This document shows positions 2,671 through 35,387 of a stretch of 47,783 bases of DNA, piece after piece. This DNA comes from a virus (lineage: Duplodnaviria; Heunggongvirae; Uroviricota; Caudoviricetes), in IMG/VR virus record IMGVR_UViG_2922289487_000003, positions 97,731 to 145,513 of that record, one strand, 5' to 3'. The notes under the pieces were generated by a model that did no database searches, was not told where the DNA came from, and saw only the letters and a program-made list of their open reading frames with translations. Position 1 is the stretch's first letter. The number at the start of each line of letters is the position of its first letter. A program made the translations under genes and the position numbers.

Positions 2671-3030
2671 TCAGCCTTTCTTCATCAGCTCGCGCTTGAT
2701 TTCGTCTGTGCGCATCGTGACGTCGGCAGCGGTAATCGCCTCGTTCAGCTTCACGATGTCCTCGATCTCTGACGGGGATTTCTGAGCCAGATGGAAAATC
2801 GCAGCACGAATCACGTCAGAACGGGTGAACTTCTCGAAGCGAGGGATGAACTTCATCATCTCCAGCAGATCGAAGTACTCGTCTTCAAGAGACATCGTTC
2901 GGCTCTTAATCTTTTCTTTACCACGAGTCGGGCGGCCCTGTGGTCTGACTGGCTGGCGCATTGGTGTACTGCTTTTAGCCGGTGCATCTGGCTCTTTGCG
3001 CTTGGCAAGGTCTCCCATTTTCATGGACAT
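2671..3030 (-). CDS. Partition centromere-binding protein, ribbon-helix-helix (ParG-like) type
   Basis: 119 aa, coupled to parA; flexible basic N-tail then strand-helix-helix pattern (KSRTMSLEDEYFDLL...TRSDVIRAAI). Confidence 0.65.
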   Translation of the reverse strand: MSMKMGDLAKRKEPDAPAKSSTPMRQPVRPQGRPTRGKEKIKSRTMSLEDEYFDLLEMMKFIPRFEKFTRSDVIRAAIFHLAQKSPSEIEDIVKLNEAITAADVTMRTDEIKRELMKKG

Positions 3031-3695
3031 TAGTTTTCCTCCAGACTCAAGATGTAATCTACTAACTCTTCAAACTCGGCTTCCGCTTTCTTGTCGCGTT
3101 CTGCGCCGGTCATTTCAAAGATAGAACGCCCTGCCTCTTCTGCGTCGTCATACACGTTGCGGTTATACAGGTTAACCGGTGCGGCCTCGATGCCGAATGT
3201 TTCAACAATCTCTTTAGCGGCCAGAATACGCGACACCTGTGAAGGCAGCGAAGGACACTGGTTGATAACCGCGCGAATCTTCACTTTCTCGTTCACGTTG
3301 CGAACGTTGTCGATAATCGGGTCGATATCTCGCAGAGATTTCAAATCACGACGCTTAGGACGTAGCGGGATAATGATGACGTCAGCTAACAGCATAGCTT
3401 GTCGCTGGATTTCGGAGTCGAAGCCACCCGCATCAATGACCACGTAGTCGTAGCGCCCCTCCAGCGATCTGATGTGCTTAATGATGTCATCCTGGACATA
3501 AGCAAACGGGATCAACTCAAGTTCTTCATTCTGACGACGGTCTTCACACCAGCTCGTTGTGGTGCGCTGGATGTCGATGTCGGTTACTTGGGTTTTCTTT
3601 TTCTTTTTAACTTTAAGGCAGACTGCAATTTGCTGGGCAACCGTAGATTTGCCTGGGCCGCCCTTCGTGCCGCCAACCACAATGATCTGAGTCAT
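3030..3695 (-). CDS. parA: ParA/ParF-type Walker-box partition ATPase (type Ib, no N-terminal HTH)
   Basis: Deviant Walker A KGGPGKST at the N-terminus, DIDIQ, YDYVVIDAGG, ADVIIIP. Confidence 0.92.
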   Translation of the reverse strand: MTQIIVVGGTKGGPGKSTVAQQIAVCLKVKKKKKTQVTDIDIQRTTTSWCEDRRQNEELELIPFAYVQDDIIKHIRSLEGRYDYVVIDAGGFDSEIQRQAMLLADVIIIPLRPKRRDLKSLRDIDPIIDNVRNVNEKVKIRAVINQCPSLPSQVSRILAAKEIVETFGIEAAPVNLYNRNVYDDAEEAGRSIFEMTGAERDKKAEAEFEELVDYILSLEEN

Positions 3696-21868: not shown

Positions 21869-21888
21869 ATAAGTATATACTTACTTAT
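21869..21888. promoter_or_regulatory. 20-bp palindromic motif copy upstream of the major tail gene
   Basis: ATAAGTATATACTTACTTAT; on the minus strand runs into TATCAT (-10-like). Confidence 0.75.
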
Positions 21889-26353: not shown

Positions 26354-27934
26354 TCACTCGGTCTCTTGAGTAGATGAGTCCCCATTCCCTCGGGGTTGAT
26401 CTCGCCCGCTTTCCTGGGCTGTATTGCGATCATAAGTAAGTACTGACTTATTTTCAAGGGTGTTAAGATCATTTTTTTGAGGATATTTCAAGAGATCTTT
26501 TCTAAATTCTTTCTGCATCGCCTCAGTGACGTTCGGGAAAATCTTCTCAATGAGCATTTCCATCTGATGACGACGTACAGAATCCGGCGCCTGGAGCAGC
26601 GACAATTTCTCAGCGACGGCAAATTCATCCGTTAGTCCACGAATGTCAAAACTCTCCGGGTACGCGATGAGAGAATGGTCTTCATCCAGATCGACACCCA
26701 TCCATAACGCGACCAGTTGCATCATCTGGCGCTCTGCCCTTTCAAGGCGTTCTGCTTTTGTCACCAGCAGACTGTTAACGCGCTGGAAATCGTACATCTT
26801 GGCTGCACCGGATGAATTATCGATGCCCTGCGCGTTGTCCTGCTTGGTTCGTTCACCGGCGACACCAACGGAATGGTAGATCTCGTTAATCACCGTCTTA
26901 ATTGTGGTGATGATCATCTGAGCCTGCTTCGGATCTGGAGACAGGTAGAACGGCTGATTCCCGCCTTCTGAGTCATAGGTAAAGACGCGTTTTGTCCCCA
27001 TTTCCAGCACCTTGTCGTGGTTCTCATCGCCAGGCAGTAATGACTGAACCGGGATAGCCAGTTGGCTGAACGTCTGATCCTGAATGATGGCATCAAGGTT
27101 CGACAGGTAGTTGGCCACGGCCCGGTCAAGGTACGCGATATCGTCGATCAGCGACGGACTGAAATACGGGGATTCGCTTTCACCAATGCAGTCCACCGGG
27201 AACACCGGCACCACACCCAGGTCGTGTTTGCCACTGTCCTCCAGCACGACCTTCGCCTGACGACGGCCAGTGCCTTTCTTCACTTCTTCGCGAAAGAGAT
27301 ACCATGAGGTTTGAGTCCAGAGTCGATAACGCAAGAACTCCTGTCCCGTTGAAGTAAACGGATCGGCATCGTCACGCCCGACTTCAACGATTAATGCCCA
27401 GAGCATATTGCCGTCTTCATCCCAGGCGACATCGAGCATCTGTTGCGGAGAAATCCAGTAGGCATAGGCTCTGGCGTCGTTTTTCTTCTCGTCGGCGACC
27501 GACTCAACATCGCCGTTCATGGTGCTGTCCACGACAACCCAGATACGACCGTAAATAGACGACTGGAGATCGATGGCCGCCATGAAAGCATCAATGGAGA
27601 TGTTCTGCCGGGTCGCACGCTTCCAGAAGTTGCGGATCTGCTCCGGTGCTTCATCAGTGTTGCGGTGGATATCCTCTTTGAAGAGATACTTGTTGATGAG
27701 GTTCACCACTTCACGCGTATGGTTGAAGCGGTACGCTCGCTCCAGACGTTCCTTGAACTCCTGATCACCTTCTTTGAAGTAACGGAAAATGTTGTCATTG
27801 AACCAGCTACGACCGCCAGCGTAGGTGCTGGCGAGGAAGTCCCAATGCTCTTTTTTCTTCTCATATTCCGGGTGGCGTCGTGCCACCAGATCTTTGATTT
27901 GCTTATCAGTCAATTCCATTTGCTTTATTTCCAT
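26354..27934 (-). CDS. Portal protein
   Basis: 526 aa after terL; YAGG, RLERAYRFN, SSGAAK.YD motifs. Confidence 0.85.
   Translation of the reverse strand: MEIKQMELTDKQIKDLVARRHPEYEKKKEHWDFLASTYAGGRSWFNDNIFRYFKEGDQEFKERLERAYRFNHTREVVNLINKYLFKEDIHRNTDEAPEQIRNFWKRATRQNISIDAFMAAIDLQSSIYGRIWVVVDSTMNGDVESVADEKKNDARAYAYWISPQQMLDVAWDEDGNMLWALIVEVGRDDADPFTSTGQEFLRYRLWTQTSWYLFREEVKKGTGRRQAKVVLEDSGKHDLGVVPVFPVDCIGESESPYFSPSLIDDIAYLDRAVANYLSNLDAIIQDQTFSQLAIPVQSLLPGDENHDKVLEMGTKRVFTYDSEGGNQPFYLSPDPKQAQMIITTIKTVINEIYHSVGVAGERTKQDNAQGIDNSSGAAKMYDFQRVNSLLVTKAERLERAERQMMQLVALWMGVDLDEDHSLIAYPESFDIRGLTDEFAVAEKLSLLQAPDSVRRHQMEMLIEKIFPNVTEAMQKEFRKDLLKYPQKNDLNTLENKSVLTYDRNTAQESGRDQPRGNGDSSTQETE
26432..26451. promoter_or_regulatory. 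20-bp palindromic motif copy inside the portal 3' end, 100 bp upstream of the scaffold gene
   Basis: ATAAGTAAGTACTGACTTAT; on the minus strand runs into TATGAT. Confidence 0.7.
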
Positions 27935-27936
27935 AT

Positions 27937-27956
27937 GTAGGTAAGTAATTACTTAT
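27937..27956. promoter_or_regulatory. 20-bp palindromic motif copy between terL and portal
   Basis: GTAGGTAAGTAATTACTTAT, overlapping the terL stop. Confidence 0.7.
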
Positions 27957-29209
27957 CTAGATCCACCAAGAATAACACGATTTTTCACCGGATACCTACG
28001 ATGAACCGGATACCCCAGCGCATCCGCGCTGTGCTCGATGCCACCCGTCTTATCAACGTCGCGCGAACCAGGCTTGTAGATGACCTTCTCCAGTGAATCG
28101 ATAAGGTGTTTGCACTTCGGATCGATGAACAAACGTGTCTCACCAGACGCACTCATCAGCATACGGTTCACGGCATTGACGCGGTCGGCGATCGCCGGGT
28201 GCTTCTTCGGATAGTCGACGCGAAGGAATCCCTTCTCTTTGAAGATATCGATGTCAGACTCACCACGAGCGTGCTGGCGATATGCACCTGCCGGGTCGGG
28301 GAAGATTGTGACCTGAGACTTCCAGCGCCAGAAGCGACGCTCCAGCTCATCACACACCTCTGCCGTGTTGGATGAGAAGAGCACCAGCTCGTCGACCGCC
28401 CACAGCTCGCCATTAGGTTGCGGCTGCAGGATGACCGAAGACATCGGGTCGATGTTGAAGTCCTGACCAACCCAGATCGGCAGCTTCGGATTGAACTGGA
28501 GTGGCTTCACATGCACGTTGCGGTCGAACGGGTAGTAAACGCGACCGGACATGTTTTCAAAGCTTGCCAGGTATTCCTGCGCGAACGATTTAGGGTCCAT
28601 ATCGTTCTTCGCGGCTTCGATTTCCGCTGTTGGCACGAATGGAGAGTCAGCGGTAACGAACTGCCAGCTTTTCCACTGTCCTTTACGTTGCAGCTCTTTG
28701 TTCTGGCCTATCGTCCACAGCTTGTGGAACTCTGAGAAGCCTTTCGGTGTACCGATGATCAGCGCACCACCACGGGTGGAGGACAGCGTCGGACGAAGTA
28801 CCTTGTACCAGGTGTCCGCCTTCATATCCTGAAATTCATCGAGCACCACAAAATGCAGCGCCACACCGCGAAGTGTGTCTGGCTTATCCGCGCCTTTCAG
28901 CGCGATCTCAGAGCCGTTCTTCAACACGATGGTCATCGTGGTGTCGTTTTTCTTGCGCACCCACTTACGCGGCAGCACTTCTTGCAGGTCATCCCACAGG
29001 ATCTGGCGAGCCATCTGGTAGGTCGGTGCGACGTACCAGACTCGCTGCTTTTTCGCTTTGGCTGCGGCGCGAATGATGGTGGAGATCGACAGACGGGATT
29101 TTCCCCAGCGTCGACCGGCGCACACCACTTTGAAACGATGTGGCGACTGGAAGACTTTCATCTGCCCGGAATGCAGCTGTACGAGACTCAGAGACGACGG
29201 GATGGCCAT
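27953..29209 (-). CDS. terL: Terminase large subunit
   Basis: Walker A CAGRRWGKS, WYVAPT, Walker B VVLDEF, IIGTPKG, nuclease GQDFN and H.ADALGY. Confidence 0.95.
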   Translation of the reverse strand: MAIPSSLSLVQLHSGQMKVFQSPHRFKVVCAGRRWGKSRLSISTIIRAAAKAKKQRVWYVAPTYQMARQILWDDLQEVLPRKWVRKKNDTTMTIVLKNGSEIALKGADKPDTLRGVALHFVVLDEFQDMKADTWYKVLRPTLSSTRGGALIIGTPKGFSEFHKLWTIGQNKELQRKGQWKSWQFVTADSPFVPTAEIEAAKNDMDPKSFAQEYLASFENMSGRVYYPFDRNVHVKPLQFNPKLPIWVGQDFNIDPMSSVILQPQPNGELWAVDELVLFSSNTAEVCDELERRFWRWKSQVTIFPDPAGAYRQHARGESDIDIFKEKGFLRVDYPKKHPAIADRVNAVNRMLMSASGETRLFIDPKCKHLIDSLEKVIYKPGSRDVDKTGGIEHSADALGYPVHRRYPVKNRVILGGSR

Positions 29210-29211
29210 AA

Positions 29212-29853
29212 TCAGACGCTCCCATCACTTTCATCACCCGACACGTCAGAATCGCTCTCAGCTTCGCTCAGTGCTTCTTCTTCGAGTGACTCAAGCAGAT
29301 CGTCATCGAGCAACTCAGGCTCATCGTCTTCCTTACGCAACTGCGCAACCTGGGAAGGTGTCAGCTCACCAAAGACCAGATTCGGAATATCGTCGTCTTC
29401 GCCTTCAGCGCTATCCATACCGAGCGCTTTCGACGAAATTTCGAAACACTTGGCGAGTGTGCCGCTGGCACGCTGTATGCTCTTGATGTCGTCCTCAATG
29501 GAGGCGAGTGGTCTGCCGTCCTTTTTGGCTGTGGCCACCTCGTGCATCACCATCCGACCGAGCGCAAACGCCCAATCGTCATAACGGGTGCGACGTTCTT
29601 CTATCTTCTCTGCGCGAGCTTTTGCACGCAGTTCTGCGTCGGATTTAAGCGACTCGCGCACCATCTTTCCAACGGAATCAGCGCCTTTCTCTAACCCACG
29701 CTTTTTGAAATGTCTGGAGAGCGTTTCACGACGAATGCCGTACTCTTCCTCCAGCTTTGAGAGCGTATATTCACCGGAAGTCCACTTAGCTTCGGCTTCT
29801 GCCCACTCAGCTGGCGACAGGCGAGTTTTGCTCTCGTCTTTTTCTACAGTCAT
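29212..29853 (-). CDS. terS: Terminase small subunit
   Basis: N-terminal HTH (YTLSKLEEEYGIRRETLSRHF), acidic tail, directly upstream of terL. Confidence 0.8.
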   Translation of the reverse strand: MTVEKDESKTRLSPAEWAEAEAKWTSGEYTLSKLEEEYGIRRETLSRHFKKRGLEKGADSVGKMVRESLKSDAELRAKARAEKIEERRTRYDDWAFALGRMVMHEVATAKKDGRPLASIEDDIKSIQRASGTLAKCFEISSKALGMDSAEGEDDDIPNLVFGELTPSQVAQLRKEDDEPELLDDDLLESLEEEALSEAESDSDVSGDESDGSV

Positions 29854-29892
29854 AGATCCCTCTAAAACACTCAGAGCGCATCCTTGCGCCCC

Positions 29893-29934
29893 TAAACAAT
29901 TTGTTTAAATCACTGCCTAACCAATTTGTTTTCT
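29893..29934. promoter_or_regulatory. Two tandem 17-bp operator copies upstream of terS (29893-29909, 29918-29934)
   Basis: TAAACAATTTGTTTAAA and TAACCAATTTGTTTTCT. Confidence 0.65.
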
Positions 29935-29960
29935 GCGGTGTTTAAAACCAGTCTGGGGAG

Positions 29961-30024
29961 TTTTCAGAACCTGCTTCCGTATATATTTAATAAGTCACTT
30001 AGTATTTATATATACGGAAGCAGG
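29961..30024. repeat. ~65-bp palindromic element, copy B (perfect 16-bp arms, TAAGTCACTTA core)
   Basis: CCTGCTTCCGTATATA (29970-29985) and TATATACGGAAGCAGG (30009-30024); inverted homolog of 1495-1560. Confidence 0.85.
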
Positions 30025-30048
30025 CTTCAAATTGACTCCCAGACCGAC

Positions 30049-30315
30049 TTACATCATCAGTAATTTGGCTCTCGCACGACCTAACGTGGTCAACCCCAGC
30101 GTGCGCCGGTGATAGCCAGAATCACCACGCTGGCGGCACAGCCCTTTCTCCACCAGCCCCTTTTTCACCAGTGCGCGGATCGAGAACTGCATACTCTGTT
30201 TCGTGGTTTTGTACGGCAGAACTTCCAGCAGCTCGTCCAGATCGAGCAGGTGACCGCGCTCATGCCCTAAATTGATGGTTTTGATGATATCTTTCTGTTT
30301 GTCGGTCAAAGTCAT
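30049..30315 (-). CDS. Winged-helix DNA-binding protein (88 aa)
   Basis: LTDKQKDII...TKQSMQFSIRALVKKGLVEK...RRTLGLTTLGR, MarR-like pattern. Confidence 0.75.
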   Translation of the reverse strand: MTLTDKQKDIIKTINLGHERGHLLDLDELLEVLPYKTTKQSMQFSIRALVKKGLVEKGLCRQRGDSGYHRRTLGLTTLGRARAKLLMM

Positions 30316-30324
30316 GGCAAATCC

Positions 30325-31215
30325 TTATGCCGGTAAAGCAATTTCAAGCGGTTTGTTCAGTGGTTGTTTGTCAAAGGCCAGTAGTGGCAGCGTGTCTGGC
30401 AACTGGCGACCAAAGTCTGGGTTGCGGTACACGCCATACAACGGAGAAGTAAAGCTCAGGTTGTGAATATCCTTGAGCAGCTTCACGATGCTGGCTTCAT
30501 CCACCAGGCTGTCAGCAATGTCCTGAATGGTTGTGCCACGGTTGCGACCGGCTTTCGCCAGAGAACTGTTCTTGTGGTAGTCGGCCACCAGATCGCGTAA
30601 CGCGCGACGACGGCGTGACTCACTCATGGCAAACAGCTCTTTCACGATGGACTCGTTGTCACCAGGGTCGGAACGGAAATGACGCTGGAAAACACGCAGC
30701 GCACTCTCATAGCTCTTCGGGCGCTCCGGACGGATGAACTGGAACCCTGCTTTCATGGCGAACGGGTTGTATTTGCTCATCGACGACTGGATTTCGATAA
30801 TTGGCCGGTCATGCATCCTGCTGACCAGGTTAATCATGCGATAAGAGACGCCGACGCCGCGGTACTGCGTATCCACAACGGAACGGCTGATCACCGCGAA
30901 GTTGTTATTCACATACCGGCCCCAGTACTGGTTGGCCACGGTGGTGTTTGTTGTCGGCTTCAGCTTCGGAAACATACGATGACGAGGCGCCAGTAACAGT
31001 TTGGGGAACGCCATCACCACAACACCCACCAGCCGACCATCCAGCTCGCAGCGATAGTAAGTCGGTGCAAAAGGCTTGCCGTCCGTCTTGTAGTGCAGCG
31101 ATTTCAGCGCGTGCCAGTCATCGACCGTACCTTTGGTGACGACCATGCGTTCCAGAAAATCCAGGTGTCGCGGGAACTCTTCCGGGCGATAACGCCTGAT
31201 AATGATGTCTGTCAT
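30325..31215 (-). CDS. GNAT-fold acetyltransferase-like protein (296 aa)
   Basis: ISRSVVDTQYRGVGVS acetyl-CoA motif; RLVGVVVM strand; NPFAMKAGF. Confidence 0.7.
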   Translation of the reverse strand: MTDIIIRRYRPEEFPRHLDFLERMVVTKGTVDDWHALKSLHYKTDGKPFAPTYYRCELDGRLVGVVVMAFPKLLLAPRHRMFPKLKPTTNTTVANQYWGRYVNNNFAVISRSVVDTQYRGVGVSYRMINLVSRMHDRPIIEIQSSMSKYNPFAMKAGFQFIRPERPKSYESALRVFQRHFRSDPGDNESIVKELFAMSESRRRRALRDLVADYHKNSSLAKAGRNRGTTIQDIADSLVDEASIVKLLKDIHNLSFTSPLYGVYRNPDFGRQLPDTLPLLAFDKQPLNKPLEIALPA

Positions 31216-31763
31216 CGCACCACCACCCTACGATTGCAGGAACCGCCTCTGCTGATCGTTGATACCGGACGCGTCACGATGGATTCGATGGCCGGCAGCC
31301 CGCCCGCCTTTTTGTCAGCAAGAAACTGGAGACGTGCGCGACTGAACTCCTCTGCGATATAACCCTGCAGATAGGTCAGAGCCTCCTGATCGGTTAACTC
31401 AACACCGTGATATTCCGCCGTCATCAGTGCGATATGTAATGCTTCATGCCAGTAGACAGATTCTTCGTACTTCTCCGGCAGATAAACACAATGCACCAGT
31501 GAGTCAGCGGGAACGTAGCCCAGAGGCGTTACCATTCCACCGATACCGTAGACAAAATCGCCCTCGTCCAGACCGTACAACTGCTTGACGGTCTCTACGT
31601 AACGGCGATCGCCAAACACGACACAGCAGCGATTAAAATACGGCGCGACACGGAACCCGTAAGCCCCATGCGCACGCAACCAGTCCTGCCACTCTGCCTC
31701 GGTTGTCCAGCGGCGACGCAGATCAGCGCCTTCATAAATGGGGAAGACTTTCTTAATCTGCAT
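31212..31763 (-). CDS. Putative zincin metallopeptidase (HExxH...E)
   Basis: VYWHEALHIAL followed by DQEALTYL. Confidence 0.6.
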   Translation of the reverse strand: MQIKKVFPIYEGADLRRRWTTEAEWQDWLRAHGAYGFRVAPYFNRCCVVFGDRRYVETVKQLYGLDEGDFVYGIGGMVTPLGYVPADSLVHCVYLPEKYEESVYWHEALHIALMTAEYHGVELTDQEALTYLQGYIAEEFSRARLQFLADKKAGGLPAIESIVTRPVSTISRGGSCNRRVVVR

Positions 31764-32394
31764 ATTCCACCTTCACTCGCTCTTTGTAGTGCTTGGTGAT
31801 CTGCATATCCGGACGCAGCGCGTTTTTCAGGTCTTCGTGGGTCGTTGCCACCATGACCGTCGCCCCAACCTTTCGGGCAGCACGCTGGAGGTTCGACGCC
31901 ACAACCTGAGCAGTTACGCGGTCGAGAACTGCCCCGAACTCATCGGCAGCCCAGACTTTTGCGCCGGATTCGATGAGTTTGGCGATCTTGAGACGATATT
32001 TCTGGCCGTCAGACATCTCGGATGGCTTGCGCACAAAAAGATAGGCGTCATTCAGACCGGCCATAGAAAGCAATCCCAGCGCCTCGCTGGTGGTCTTGCC
32101 CAACTGGTCAATCACGTTGATCTCATTGTCGAAGGTGAAGTCATCGATCGATGCGACTGACAGCCCCTCTTCCTTCATCTGACGTTGCAGTTCGCGCAGC
32201 ACGACAGATTTACCGGAACCTGACTGGCCGGTGATGTACACCACATCGCCCTGCCCCACTTCCAGCTCCAGATTGTCGTAAAGCGTCCACTCTTTTTCGT
32301 CCAGGCCAAGACCGAACGATTCGGCAATCTCCAGCGTGCGCGTGGTCTTGTTTACGCGGGTCTGAAACGACACATTGATGGTGTATTTGCTCAT
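31753..32394 (-). CDS. Stand-alone ABC-type ATPase (no membrane partner)
   Basis: Walker A GQSGSGKS, signature MSDGQKYR, Walker B AADEF, D-loop GAVLD, H-loop TTHE. Confidence 0.9.
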   Translation of the reverse strand: MSKYTINVSFQTRVNKTTRTLEIAESFGLGLDEKEWTLYDNLELEVGQGDVVYITGQSGSGKSVVLRELQRQMKEEGLSVASIDDFTFDNEINVIDQLGKTTSEALGLLSMAGLNDAYLFVRKPSEMSDGQKYRLKIAKLIESGAKVWAADEFGAVLDRVTAQVVASNLQRAARKVGATVMVATTHEDLKNALRPDMQITKHYKERVKVEYAD

Positions 32395-33059
32395 GCAGCC
32401 AGCTCCCCGGACGAAACTTTCTCCGCATACGCTACGAAAGCGTCTACCCCGCTCTCTCCCGTCATTTCTTCCATGTGGGCAAGCAAATCCCCCACCACGA
32501 TGGCAGAGCCAGCAGGGAGCGTTTTAAAGCCCAATACGTCGATGACGCGGACTTCTTCTGCGGCGACTTCGCTACTGATTTCCTTGTGCTCTTCCTTCTG
32601 GCGTTCTGTTTCTTCGCCCAGATCGAGCACCAGTGAGCCGGTGTCCATCTCTTCGGTCATGCTGCCGACCAGCACATTAAGCTCGCGCTCTTCAAAACCG
32701 AAGACCTCGACGTCGCCAAGCACCAGCAATTCCAGTTCCTGCTGCAATTTGATGGCGTCGTAGTCAATGCTGGACAGACGGTTGTCTTCCAGACGCTTTG
32801 CCTTCACTTCGTCTTCGCTCAGATCATCACGAACGATCACCGGCACGCGTTTCAGACCTGCCAGAAGCGCTGCCTCGCGACGACCGTGGCCGGTAATGAT
32901 GACATCGTGCCTGTCGACGGTGATCGGCTGGTCAAAACCGCGCTTTTTGATGGCGGCAGCCAGATCGCGGATCTGCTGTTCGTCGTGCTTTTTAGCGTTC
33001 ATCTCATACGGGATGAGTTCTGCCGGGTCCCGGTAGACGATTTCGAAGTTTTTGGTCAT
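32391..33059 (-). CDS. ParB/Srx N-terminal-domain protein with acidic C-terminus
   Basis: LIPYEMNAKKH, GFDQPITVD, IITGHGRREAA, RLEDNR. Confidence 0.85.
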   Translation of the reverse strand: MTKNFEIVYRDPAELIPYEMNAKKHDEQQIRDLAAAIKKRGFDQPITVDRHDVIITGHGRREAALLAGLKRVPVIVRDDLSEDEVKAKRLEDNRLSSIDYDAIKLQQELELLVLGDVEVFGFEERELNVLVGSMTEEMDTGSLVLDLGEETERQKEEHKEISSEVAAEEVRVIDVLGFKTLPAGSAIVVGDLLAHMEEMTGESGVDAFVAYAEKVSSGELAA

Positions 33060-33739
33060 CACATACGCTCCTTGTAGTTGTCGACCAGCCACACCAGAGC
33101 TTCACCGGCGTTCTCCATTTCGTTGCCTGTATTGATGCCCTGCTCTTTGATGATGGTTTTGATGGTGTCGGCAACGCGATCAGACGCGTCAAACGTGACT
33201 TTGAAGCGCATCGTCTGGTGTTCGGTGCCAACGCGTTCAATTTTCTCGCGTGTGTCCTTCTCAACTGGCTCATCATCACCACGGGAGAGCGCTTCCAGCG
33301 CTTCGAGGTCGATAACCGACGCTTTGGCGAGTGTTGCCGCCATTTCATCGTCATACGGGGCGATATCGGAGAGTCGGTAGTCGAGATCAGACTGGATTTC
33401 TTCGATCAAACGCTGCAATGCAACCTGATCGTCTTCGCCGTAGCGTTCGTTATCGACGAGAGACATCTGTTTGGCCACCAGGTCGCTGATTTTGCCCACA
33501 GAGATGACAGGAACCGTCGAAATCCCCTGCTCCATAGCAGCACGCCAGCGGTGTTCGCCGCCGAGGATCTCAAAAATGCCGCCGCCCAGCTCCCGCGCCA
33601 GAATAGGCTTAAAAAATCCCAGCTTTTCGATAGAACCTTTCAGTTTTTCGAAGTTTTGCGCGCCAACCGAGTTGGTATTCCAGGGATTCGGACGCAGGTT
33701 CGCGACTTCAACCTGCAAAATCGTAATTTTCACGCTCAT
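33059..33739 (-). CDS. ParB/Srx N-terminal-domain protein
   Basis: LRPNPWNTN, GFFKPILAR, ILGGEHRWRAA, SLVDNE. Confidence 0.85.
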   Translation of the reverse strand: MSVKITILQVEVANLRPNPWNTNSVGAQNFEKLKGSIEKLGFFKPILARELGGGIFEILGGEHRWRAAMEQGISTVPVISVGKISDLVAKQMSLVDNERYGEDDQVALQRLIEEIQSDLDYRLSDIAPYDDEMAATLAKASVIDLEALEALSRGDDEPVEKDTREKIERVGTEHQTMRFKVTFDASDRVADTIKTIIKEQGINTGNEMENAGEALVWLVDNYKERM

Positions 33740-33760
33740 TTTCCTGATACAATCCATTGT

Positions 33761-33780
33761 ATAAGTACTTACTTACTATA
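33761..33780. promoter_or_regulatory. 20-bp palindromic motif copy (degenerate) upstream of the ParB operon
   Basis: ATAAGTACTTACTTACTATA; TACAAT follows on the minus strand. Confidence 0.6.
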
Positions 33781-33821: not shown

Positions 33822-35387
33822 ATGACAGTTCGGATTGTATCGAATGCCGTCAACGCGCTGATTTCTGGCGCTGATGACAACGTAAAACGGCTCGTTCAGG
33901 AGATGTTGAGCTATGAAGTGGAAGCCGGTGACTGGAAAGGCACCAGCACCATGTTCAACTGGAGCAAAAATGCGTTCCCGGCTGGGTTTGCAAAGCCAGT
34001 GGCGGCAAATTTACTGAAAGCCGGCATCAAATGCGTGCATGTTCGTAAGGAAAAAGCCCCCGCGCTGGGCAAACCGAACCCGGTCGTTAACCCATACCCA
34101 TACAATCCGGACTATGCGTATCAGGATCAGACAGTAGAAACACTGGTTCGCGAAGGGATGATGATTGCGCAGATCGCCACTGGTGGCGGTAAGTCGAACG
34201 TGGCATGTAAAGCAGCTGCACGTATCGGCAGAATGACGCTCTTTTTGACGACTCGTTCGGTTTTGATGTTCCAGATGGCAGACAACTTCCAGAAATCCAT
34301 CGATTACCGCTCATCGCACGGCGAACCGTGGTTGAAAGATCAGAAAGTCGGTGTGATTGGTTCTGGTGAGTTTCAGGTCTCGCGACACATCAACGTTGCA
34401 ACAGTACAGACTCTGGCAAGTTTTCTCGAAGAGCCGCCGAGAGACGCGTCAGCGAAGAAAAAACAGTATCATCTGAAACGGCGTGAACTGGTTAAACGGT
34501 TTCTCTCCAGTGTTTCACTTCTCATTCTGGAAGAAGCACACGAATCATCAGGCTCGAACTTTTACGATATCGCCAGGCTCTGCGTAAACGCAGATTATCG
34601 TCTGGCACTAACCGCTACGCCATTTATGAAAGACTCGACTGAAGCCAATATGCGCTTAATGGCGGTCGCTGGTCGCATTGAAATTAAAGTAACAGAGAAG
34701 TATCTCATCGACAGAGGTATTTTAGCCAAACCCTATTTTCTCTATCATAAAATCGCGTACACCCCAGATGAGGCGCGGATTAGAGCAGAACTGGCATCCA
34801 AACACCTTAACTTCAGAGTAGGCATGGGTACTGCTTACCAGAAAGCCTACCAGTTGGGAATAGTCTATAATCTGGCACGAAATGAGGCTATTGTACGCGA
34901 GGCGTTAATGTACAAACGCCACGGTCTGAATTGCATGACGCTGGTTCGCCATAAACGTCACGGCCAAATTCTGATGGAGATGATGAAAGAGAGCGGTCTC
35001 AACGCCGACTTCATCTACGGGGAATCGAACCAGTCTACGCGGCAGGCCAAACTTAACAGTCTTGCGGCAGGCAAAATTGATGTTCTTATTGGCTCCACAA
35101 TTCTCGATGTGGGTGTCGATGTGCCTAGCGTTGGCGCCGTAATTCTGGGTGGCGGCGGTAAAGCTGAAGTAGAAATGCGCCAGCGTGTCGGGCGCGGTCT
35201 CCGGGCCAAAAAGAACCAGGCGAATGTGTGTTTCATAACAGACTTCATTGACGTAAGTAATAAGTATCTTATGTCACACTCATACGAGCGAAAACACATT
35301 ATCGACACGACGCCTGGATTTTCCGAGGGCGTGTTGCCGGTTGGCAGCACCTTCGATTTTTCCGTTTTGAATAGAGAGAGAGTATGA
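33822..35387 (+). CDS. Superfamily II (DEAD/DEAH-like) helicase
   Basis: YAYQ Q-motif, IATGGGKS, LILEEAH, LALTATP, GVDVPS, RQRVGRGLR. Confidence 0.9.
   Translation: MTVRIVSNAVNALISGADDNVKRLVQEMLSYEVEAGDWKGTSTMFNWSKNAFPAGFAKPVAANLLKAGIKCVHVRKEKAPALGKPNPVVNPYPYNPDYAYQDQTVETLVREGMMIAQIATGGGKSNVACKAAARIGRMTLFLTTRSVLMFQMADNFQKSIDYRSSHGEPWLKDQKVGVIGSGEFQVSRHINVATVQTLASFLEEPPRDASAKKKQYHLKRRELVKRFLSSVSLLILEEAHESSGSNFYDIARLCVNADYRLALTATPFMKDSTEANMRLMAVAGRIEIKVTEKYLIDRGILAKPYFLYHKIAYTPDEARIRAELASKHLNFRVGMGTAYQKAYQLGIVYNLARNEAIVREALMYKRHGLNCMTLVRHKRHGQILMEMMKESGLNADFIYGESNQSTRQAKLNSLAAGKIDVLIGSTILDVGVDVPSVGAVILGGGGKAEVEMRQRVGRGLRAKKNQANVCFITDFIDVSNKYLMSHSYERKHIIDTTPGFSEGVLPVGSTFDFSVLNRERV

Follow-up and report, generated by a model that had tools for sequence, protein, structure and literature searches.

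Why should a tailed phage encode two ParB/Srx proteins, a soluble ABC ATPase and a GNAT-fold acyltransferase in one operon beside its terminase genes, and on what would such an assembly act? The question is posed by positions 30,049 to 33,780 of a 47,783-nt stretch of IMG/VR record IMGVR_UViG_2922289487_000003 (Caudoviricetes; positions 97,731 to 145,513 of the record), the whole of which is referred to below as the window. As judged from comparisons of sequence, gene order and modelled structure, the operon is the SSU5-type copy of a phage ParB, ABC ATPase and GNAT module that is real, conserved and already the subject of a prediction, namely that an ABC-coupled GNAT places an acyl group, of uncharacterised chemistry, on a base of DNA (Iyer, Zhang, Burroughs & Aravind, NAR 2013, as given in PMC7824862). 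A preliminary description of the locus had mentioned such a prediction for clusters of ParB, ABC ATPase and 'Mom-like' GNAT; the 2013 base-modification prediction exists (PMC7824862), whereas the 'Mom-like' label did not hold at the level of protein family. The best-supported mechanism for the module is acylation of a base in phage DNA, to which we assign somewhat less than an even chance.

The ABC ATPase and the GNAT as a probable split enzyme

An exhaustive phmmer search with the 296-aa GNAT returned 335 representatives. Most of the distant homologues are proteins of ~470–500 aa that are matched at residues ~220–400 (E 1e-18 to 1e-8), carry ABC_tran domains at their N-termini and give weak Acetyltransf_1/7/10 matches within the GNAT-matched region. 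Judged by this homology, the operon GNAT is the detached half of an ABC-GNAT fusion family of the COG2401 type, and together with the ABC protein it would constitute a split version of a single ABC-GNAT enzyme.

Several homologues carry additional domains. The ParB domain of the ParB_N-ABC-GNAT fusion P0080 aligns with the ParB1 family over 127 columns (hhalign probability 97%, E 1e-10), somewhat better than with the ParB2 family. DNA polymerase B-ABC-GNAT fusions are represented by P0093 and by P0113 (1260 aa, L090:8001-11783), in which a family B polymerase is joined to ABC-GNAT and which occurs on 24 or more contigs; the setting of these fusions is a phage replication module with Prim-Pol, RecA, 5'-3' exonuclease and SbcC-like genes. 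Gins51_C-ABC-GNAT and ABC-GNAT-TFIIB arrangements were also found, as was an intein within the ABC domain. Because of the fusions to ParB_N, DNA polymerase B, Gins51_C and TFIIB, the module is linked to DNA transactions.

Plain ABC-GNAT fusions occur in proviruses of metagenome-assembled genomes of Nitrososphaerota and Thermoproteota, between portal and capsid genes and with a ParB gene near. In one Nitrososphaerota provirus (L088:6475-11248), the fused protein (489 aa) is encoded between a divergent portal gene and a capsid gene, approximately the usual place of the large terminase, and no terminase Pfam match was found in the 17.5 kb examined. When longer fused relatives were sought in a word-indexed database, a single protein, P0001 (1475 aa), was recovered; it matches two thirds of the GNAT at 96% identity and additionally contains PF21446 and PF13884, and most probably stems from a chimeric gene call or an assembly artefact.

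With the COG2401 or MK0520-type ABC-GNAT proteins (PHROGs 293 and 886), the operon shares a GNAT of the same family by direct sequence search, a cognate, permease-free ABC ATPase with full motifs encoded upstream of it, and an association with ParB and with phage DNA metabolism, including replication and packaging genes. It differs from them in its two separate genes with an insertion slot between, its two paralogous ParBs and its obligatory partner, a putative winged helix-turn-helix (wHTH) protein. Membership of the COG2401 family provides a prediction and not a function.

The full set of ABC motifs reported in the preliminary description is borne out by conservation, with Walker A, Q97, SDGQ, DE, the D-loop and H186 invariant in 40 orthologues. 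No permease lies in or beside the operon, as had also been remarked, its flanks being the helicase gene and terS. An ABC transporter was accordingly rejected as a candidate, the permease partner being absent and the homologous ATPase being fused to GNAT instead.

The acetyl-CoA loop noted earlier in the GNAT corresponds to a motif A, YRGxGxxYR, that is invariant in the orthologues. The AF2 model, built with 47 homologues, has a mean pLDDT of 94.3. Foldseek retrieved GNATs only (E ~1e-4), among them NAT10, TmcA and Mom, and a VIA search, independent of Foldseek, gave a best GNAT Z of 11.7 and placed Mom (8bv8_B) at Z 10.7 with the longest alignment, 151 residues. The GNAT also contains a helical stretch of ~90 residues (~165-255), which is read as an insertion within the fold because the structural alignments span ~20-267. 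In profile searches against PDB sequences, the GNAT family matched only the generic GNAT 3fb3, at motif A (E 7e-4), and no Pfam family matched the GNAT at E <= 0.01; the wHTH and HExxH proteins are likewise devoid of Pfam matches, and each of these proteins has its own PHROG. AlkD, a DNA glycosylase, resembled residues 150-216 of the GNAT only at an insignificant level (E 0.44); the structure search lent this no support, and the resemblance was discarded.

Conservation of a five-gene backbone

Gene order was compared across 80 close-relative loci and 82 distant loci, the latter comprising 80 in which the GNAT is ~40% identical and two metagenomic contigs. The distant loci, retrieved by iterative searches, belong to diverse ~110-kb phages and show the same order in 82 of 82 cases: a divergent helicase gene, ParB1, ParB2, ABC, GNAT, wHTH, terS and terL. 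The five-gene backbone from ParB1 to wHTH is invariant. The wHTH gene directly follows the GNAT gene wherever the locus extends that far, and its orthology is clear in the alignment. The synteny comparison proposed in the preliminary description thus returned a backbone of five genes kept across relatives, the HExxH gene not being among them. In the comparison L075-L081, the ABC protein, GNAT and terL are 81-89% identical, against 56-75% for ParB1, ParB2, terS and wHTH.

Two orphan ParB/Srx proteins

Both ParBs possess the N-terminal ParB fold with the GxxR NTP-binding motif that defines ParB/Srx (PF02195), and ParB1 also matches Spo0J 1vz0 (E 1.9e-11). The GxxR patches, earlier described as intact, are invariant across 40 orthologues as GGEHR in ParB1 and GHGRR in ParB2; NPWNTN and DNxRYGxDD are further invariant stretches of ParB1 in the orthologue alignment. 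Met7 (33739) is most likely the true start of ParB1, a choice favoured because its relatives start there. The nearest match of ParB2 beyond its own family is the ParB domain of ParB-DNA methyltransferase fusions, as seen with phrog_498 'DNA methyltransferase' (E 1.6e-31) and with the N-terminus of PADLOC MTase_II (E 5.9e-17).

Two alternative assignments were considered and set aside. Against the model of canonical partition ParB (TIGR00180), the two proteins score 37.6 and 46.1 bits, below the cut-off of 58.45; there is no ParA in the operon and neither protein shows a helix-turn-helix (HTH). Ribbon-helix-helix C-termini, suggested by a beta-alpha-alpha pattern seen by eye, received best PDB profile matches of E 0.11 and 0.028, both to unrelated proteins. 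The C-terminal halves of ParB1 and ParB2 have no detectable relation to each other.

Orphan ParB folds bind and hydrolyse diverse NTPs (PMC12704722). A phage ParB activates a thymine dioxygenase on dsDNA (PMC13229309), and DpdB is described as the partner of DpdA, the 7-deazaguanine enzyme, in PMC10164549 (restated in PMC12839542). With these ParB-dependent DNA-modifying enzymes and the phrog_498 fusions, the operon shares an orphan ParB/Srx without an evident DNA-binding domain, encoded beside the modifying enzyme in phages and often near the terminase. The differences are that the partner is a predicted ABC-GNAT acyltransferase and that two different ParBs are always present.

Relation to GNATs that act on nucleic acids

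TmcA and NAT10 are ATPase-coupled GNATs that acetylate cytidine N4 in RNA. Like the proposed enzyme, they use an NTPase to drive a GNAT onto a nucleic-acid base, and both appear among the Foldseek matches. Their ATPase is helicase-like, however, whereas that of the operon is of the ABC type, the operon encodes neither DUF1726 nor a tRNA-binding domain, and the structural matches are no better than those of generic GNATs.

Mom is a GNAT that modifies adenine N6 in dsDNA with Gly-tRNA(Gly). An HTH-like insertion at ~175-209 is essential to it, and H58, Y59, R111 and R151 are among its critical residues, of which H58-Y59 is required for activity on dsDNA (PMC13219725). The modelled operon GNAT would share with Mom the GNAT core, a putative late helical insertion, a basic surface and late phage expression, and its invariant His-Tyr pair aligns weakly with H58-Y59. 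Unlike Mom, which lacks it at the aligned positions, the operon GNAT keeps the canonical CoA-binding motif A, and acyl-CoA is the likelier donor because this glycine-rich motif is retained. Moreover, Mom acts alone, whereas the operon GNAT is proposed to need the ABC ATPase and ParB partners.

The HExxH gene and the variable slots

The preliminary description treated the operon as a distinct six-gene form. This does not stand: the HExxH gene, present in 22 of 85 loci and absent from Cyrano and others, is on this distribution interchangeable cargo of an insertion slot and not an enzyme subunit. Within the SSU5 clade, the ABC-GNAT slot is empty (Cyrano, L019), holds an 84-aa open reading frame (ORF; L003 and most E. 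coli copies) or holds the HExxH gene. The 84-aa ORF of L003 (L003:7741-7995) has no Pfam match. The HExxH protein family is confined to SSU5-like elements; in one distant locus (L155), another HExxH...EAxxYLxG protein, a remote homologue belonging to phrog_1365, occupies the ABC-GNAT slot.

The HEALH..E motif reported earlier is genuine, WHEALH and QEA.TYLQG being invariant in the family. The name 'peptidase' fared less evenly. The model (pLDDT 90) matched no solved structure and no solved zincin (Foldseek E >0.27; VIA best Z 5.0), and no Pfam family matched the protein. The invariant motif and the predicted viral structures of BFVD speak for it: many small predicted phage proteins were matched there (E 2e-5, TMt up to 0.79), a few of them named PolyVal metallopeptidase, SprT-like or metalloprotease. 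A peptidase of the phage 'PolyVal MPTase / SprT-like' kind is plausible on these models.

Elsewhere in the module, the slots ParB1-ParB2, ParB2-ABC, ABC-GNAT and wHTH-terS contain from zero to about eleven variable small ORFs. A thioredoxin occupies the ABC-GNAT slot in 43 of the 68 complete loci of the wider group, where phrog_1233-like proteins, Phage_gp49_66 and a GDSL-like hydrolase are also encountered in slots. Anti-defence genes are exemplified by the loci L127:6698-7183 and L121:5347-5775: Tad2-like proteins (PF11195, E 1.8e-29) lie in the ABC-GNAT and ParB1-ParB2 slots of relatives, and an Acb2/Tad1 hairpin protein (PF24729, E 1.8e-14) in the ParB1-ParB2 slot only. In some relatives (L120:6582-7199, L133:6583-7137) the ABC-GNAT slot is occupied by GIY-YIG/NUMOD3 homing endonucleases, and the highly conserved late genes are targeted by selfish elements. 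One terL (L084:11042-13558) bears an intein with a LAGLIDADG domain. PADLOC returned no match to a known defence system; only MTase_II matches to ParB-like N-termini and weak P-loop matches were obtained, and none for the GNAT or the HExxH protein.

Operon anatomy and genomic setting

Nucleotide identity shows that the window is part of an SSU5-like phage-plasmid. Its 4-kb operon region is 82-90% identical to Salmonella phage SSU5, Klebsiella phage ST13-OXA48phi12.3, Escherichia phage Cyrano and others, and has plasmid matches in 249 of 5426 complete E. coli genomes, with no chromosome match. Phage-plasmids of the SSU5 type are frequent in E. coli, Klebsiella and Salmonella. The late morphogenesis region extends on the minus strand from ~5 kb to 33.8 kb, with the six operon genes at its head and the SF2 helicase gene running divergent from them (Table 1). 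The plasmid's own partition locus (2671-3695) consists of a ParA-type ATPase (3030-3695; NF041546 E 7e-35, below cut-off) and a downstream 119-aa partner.

Table 1. Features of the operon and its surroundings in the window
Feature	Position	Strand	Basis or remark
ParB1, orphan ParB/Srx N-domain, GGEHR type, pI 4.75	33059-33757	-	PF02195 E 6.5e-14; phrog_723 E 1e-83
ParB2, orphan ParB/Srx, GHGRR type	32391-33059	-	PF02195 E 1.3e-8; phrog_930 E 3e-112
Soluble ABC-type ATPase, N-terminal half of the putative split ABC-GNAT	31753-32394	-	PF00005 E 1.5e-12; phrog_293 E 1e-57
HExxH...E protein, 183 aa, cargo in the ABC-GNAT slot, possible small zincin	31212-31763	-	Motif and models
GNAT-fold acyltransferase (predicted), 296 aa, pI 9.9, catalytic half of the putative split ABC-GNAT	30325-31215	-	Model, fold and sequence matches
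Small basic winged-helix-like protein (putative wHTH), 88 aa, pI 10.1	30049-30315	-	phrog_900 E 4e-48
Candidate promoter or leader motif, core TAAGTAAGTA, TATAGT before it	33761-33780	-	Common to three minus-strand units
Long interrupted hairpin followed by U-run; terminator-like or cos/pac-associated	29950-30047	-	Between wHTH and terS
Two 16-nt direct repeats (operator-like) and small GC hairpin with T-run	29873-29931	-	Just before the terS ribosome-binding site
terS	29212-29853	-	phrog_867; invariant downstream neighbour
terL	27953-29209	-	Terminase_6N and phrog_2; invariant downstream neighbour
SF2 (DEAD/ResIII) helicase	33822-35387	+	Pfam and PHROG; invariant divergent neighbour

All six minus-strand ORFs listed in the preliminary description were recovered with the same boundaries, and the genes are translationally coupled. 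As to the short overlaps described there, ParB2/ABC and HExxH/GNAT do overlap at ATGA and ABC/HExxH by 11 nt, whereas the ParB1/ParB2 junction is not ATGA; it reads TGATG, a 1-nt overlap, and GNAT and wHTH are separated by a 9-nt gap.

A 20-bp late-type motif had been placed at the head of the operon. The exact 20-mer is unique, without a second copy within three mismatches, but a core of 10-12 nt recurs: the 10-mer TAAGTAAGTA has four copies in the window against ~0.1 expected by our own estimate, at 33766-33775, 21878-21887 and 1398-1407 on the minus strand and at 26433-26442 on the plus strand. Three of the copies precede the starts of minus-strand genes by 5-25 nt and have a TATAGT-like hexamer just before them. 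Such positions make a late promoter or a leader element with a very short leader possible.

The palindrome and operator-like repeats described before terS were both found and are conserved in relatives, as a perfect palindrome with 17-nt arms (29970-29986 and 30008-30024, spanning 29970-30024) and as two 16-nt direct repeats at 29891-29931. The intergenic RNA between wHTH and terS is predicted to fold into an extended hairpin (-69 kcal/mol, z -6.9) with a U-run after it. Because this strong hairpin and U-run, as well as a second GC hairpin with a T-run, intervene, the operon may be insulated from terS, and one may doubt whether it is 'feeding into the terminase'. In the linear GenBank records for SSU5 and Cyrano, the break falls at approximately window position 29987/29988, the inner edge of the left arm of the palindrome; the break may mark a cos/pac site or merely reflect a numbering convention.

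Proposed function and competing explanations

In the mechanism that we propose, the ABC dimer would engage dsDNA through ATP binding and hydrolysis, and the GNAT, with acyl-CoA as donor, would acylate an exocyclic base amine of phage DNA that has just been replicated; this would take place late in infection, either ahead of packaging or in its course. The pair of acidic ParB/Srx proteins would serve as NTP-dependent loaders or activators of ABC-GNAT on DNA, a role modelled on that of DpdB for DpdA and of the phage ParB for thymine dioxygenase, while the basic wHTH protein would supply DNA or site binding. The acyl mark might shield virion DNA from host nucleases or flag the DNA for packaging. 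Gene anatomy, folds, motifs, fusions and synteny were observed directly; complex formation, DNA as the substrate, the acyl donor and the biological role are inferred. More specifically, and with greater reserve, we suggest as a tentative possibility that the product is a chemically undescribed, ATP-dependent N-acyl base derived from acyl-CoA, such as an N-acetylated A, C or G, which ABC-GNAT would install on replicated phage DNA when loaded or activated by a heteromeric ParB NTPase pair. DNA acylation is favoured because fusions tie the module to DNA transactions, because synteny and catalytic motifs are invariant, because the GNAT and the wHTH protein are basic (pI 9.9 and 10.1), because ParB2 is closest to ParB-methyltransferase fusions, because the GNAT has a putative late helical insertion and a weakly aligned His-Tyr pair in common with Mom, and because there is both a prior prediction and a precedent for activation by ParB.

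A number of observations weigh against base acylation. Both ParBs are acidic, with pI values of 4.6-4.75 overall and of about 4 in the C-terminal halves, and profile searches of their C-termini against PDB sequences found no recognisable DNA-binding domain or fold. The slots make the locus a hotspot for accessory and anti-defence genes, a setting that would suit counter-defence of any kind and does not single out DNA acylation. Literature searches returned no experimental test of ABC-GNAT acylation and no modified base reported for SSU5-like virion DNA. The GNAT had been called 'Mom-like', yet the Pfam Mom model PF25680, which matches all Mom homologues examined, does not match it. Comparison of a wide GNAT alignment with a 28-member Mom alignment by hhalign gave 89 columns at E 0.0044 and a probability of only 7.8%; in this low-probability alignment the invariant H41-Y42 falls on Mom H58-Y59 and N103 on N110, and a narrow GNAT alignment gave nothing meaningful against the Mom family (probability 0.1%). 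By these profile comparisons the GNAT falls outside the Mom family, even if its mode of action may resemble that of Mom. Whether it groups with Mom or with protein acetyltransferases had been named as a check, and the structural comparison ended in a tie between Mom, NAT10/TmcA and ordinary GNATs; in the VIA search the best GNATs and Mom fall within one Z unit. With protein and small-molecule GNATs scoring as high as Mom, the modelled fold does not reveal the substrate, in line with the view of the Mom authors that substrate is not predictable from structure (PMC13219725).

A protein target must therefore be weighed. ABC-GNAT could acetylate a packaging or replication factor (terS, portal or a polymerase accessory protein) or a host nucleoid or RNA polymerase protein, with the ParBs and wHTH merely localising the enzyme on DNA and the whole regulating late development or packaging. 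Protein N-acetyltransferases (Naa10, Ard1, RimI, Naa50/60) match as strongly as Mom (Z 10-11), there is precedent for acetylation of host proteins by phage GNATs (Rac; PMC7824862), fusion to PolB, GINS or TFIIB could equally deliver the enzyme to a protein, and the module is located in head and packaging regions. We nevertheless regard this explanation as unlikely: ParB and ParB-methyltransferase-like domains and an ABC partner powered by ATP are features typical of nucleic-acid enzymes, the GNAT is strongly basic with its HY pair aligned with that of Mom, and no candidate protein substrate co-varies with the GNAT in the present data.

An improbable alternative is a counter-defence enzyme directed at RNA or a small molecule, for example at tRNA, aminoacyl-tRNA, an immune signalling nucleotide or the nucleotide pool, either through ATP-driven acetylation as in TmcA/NAT10 or through inactivation of a defence messenger. 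The fusion to DNA polymerase and the constant linkage to terminase and helicase genes point to DNA instead, and the invariance of the backbone contrasts with the patchy distribution usual for anti-defence genes. What recommends it is the rank of NAT10 and TmcA among the best Foldseek matches (E ~1e-4), albeit with high rmsd and no better than generic GNATs, the bona fide anti-defence sponges (Tad2-like, Acb2/Tad1) in the slots of relatives, and the diverse NTPs bound and hydrolysed by ParB/Srx folds (PMC12704722). The least probable of the explanations considered is that the two ParBs are independent of ABC-GNAT and merely share a late operon with it, organising cos/pac sites or late DNA for packaging or serving as a second partition-like system. 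ParBs, terS and wHTH have diverged in step and have outpaced ABC, GNAT and terL (56-67% against 81-89% identity in L075-L081), which fits sequence-specific DNA binders, and a conserved palindrome and repeats adjoin terS. However, P0080 joins a ParB1-type domain to ABC-GNAT, the ParB1-ParB2-ABC-GNAT order holds throughout at ~40% identity despite many insertions, the plasmid has a separate ParA locus, and neither ParB reaches the partition cut-off or shows an HTH.

Implications

The HExxH protein should not be counted with the ABC-GNAT enzyme. The operon locus is in addition a place to seek new counter-defence genes, because its slots collect anti-defence sponges, thioredoxins and homing endonucleases in relatives. 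SSU5 and Cyrano (strain LF82) are inducible and genetically tractable, which makes the prediction of base acylation directly testable. If the 2013 prediction is true, acylated bases made by an ATP-driven GNAT would represent a new class of phage DNA modification, and should the N-acyl base chemistry suggested here be correct, it would be common to ~110-kb enterobacterial phage-plasmids, environmental siphoviruses, jumbo phages and archaeal proviruses.

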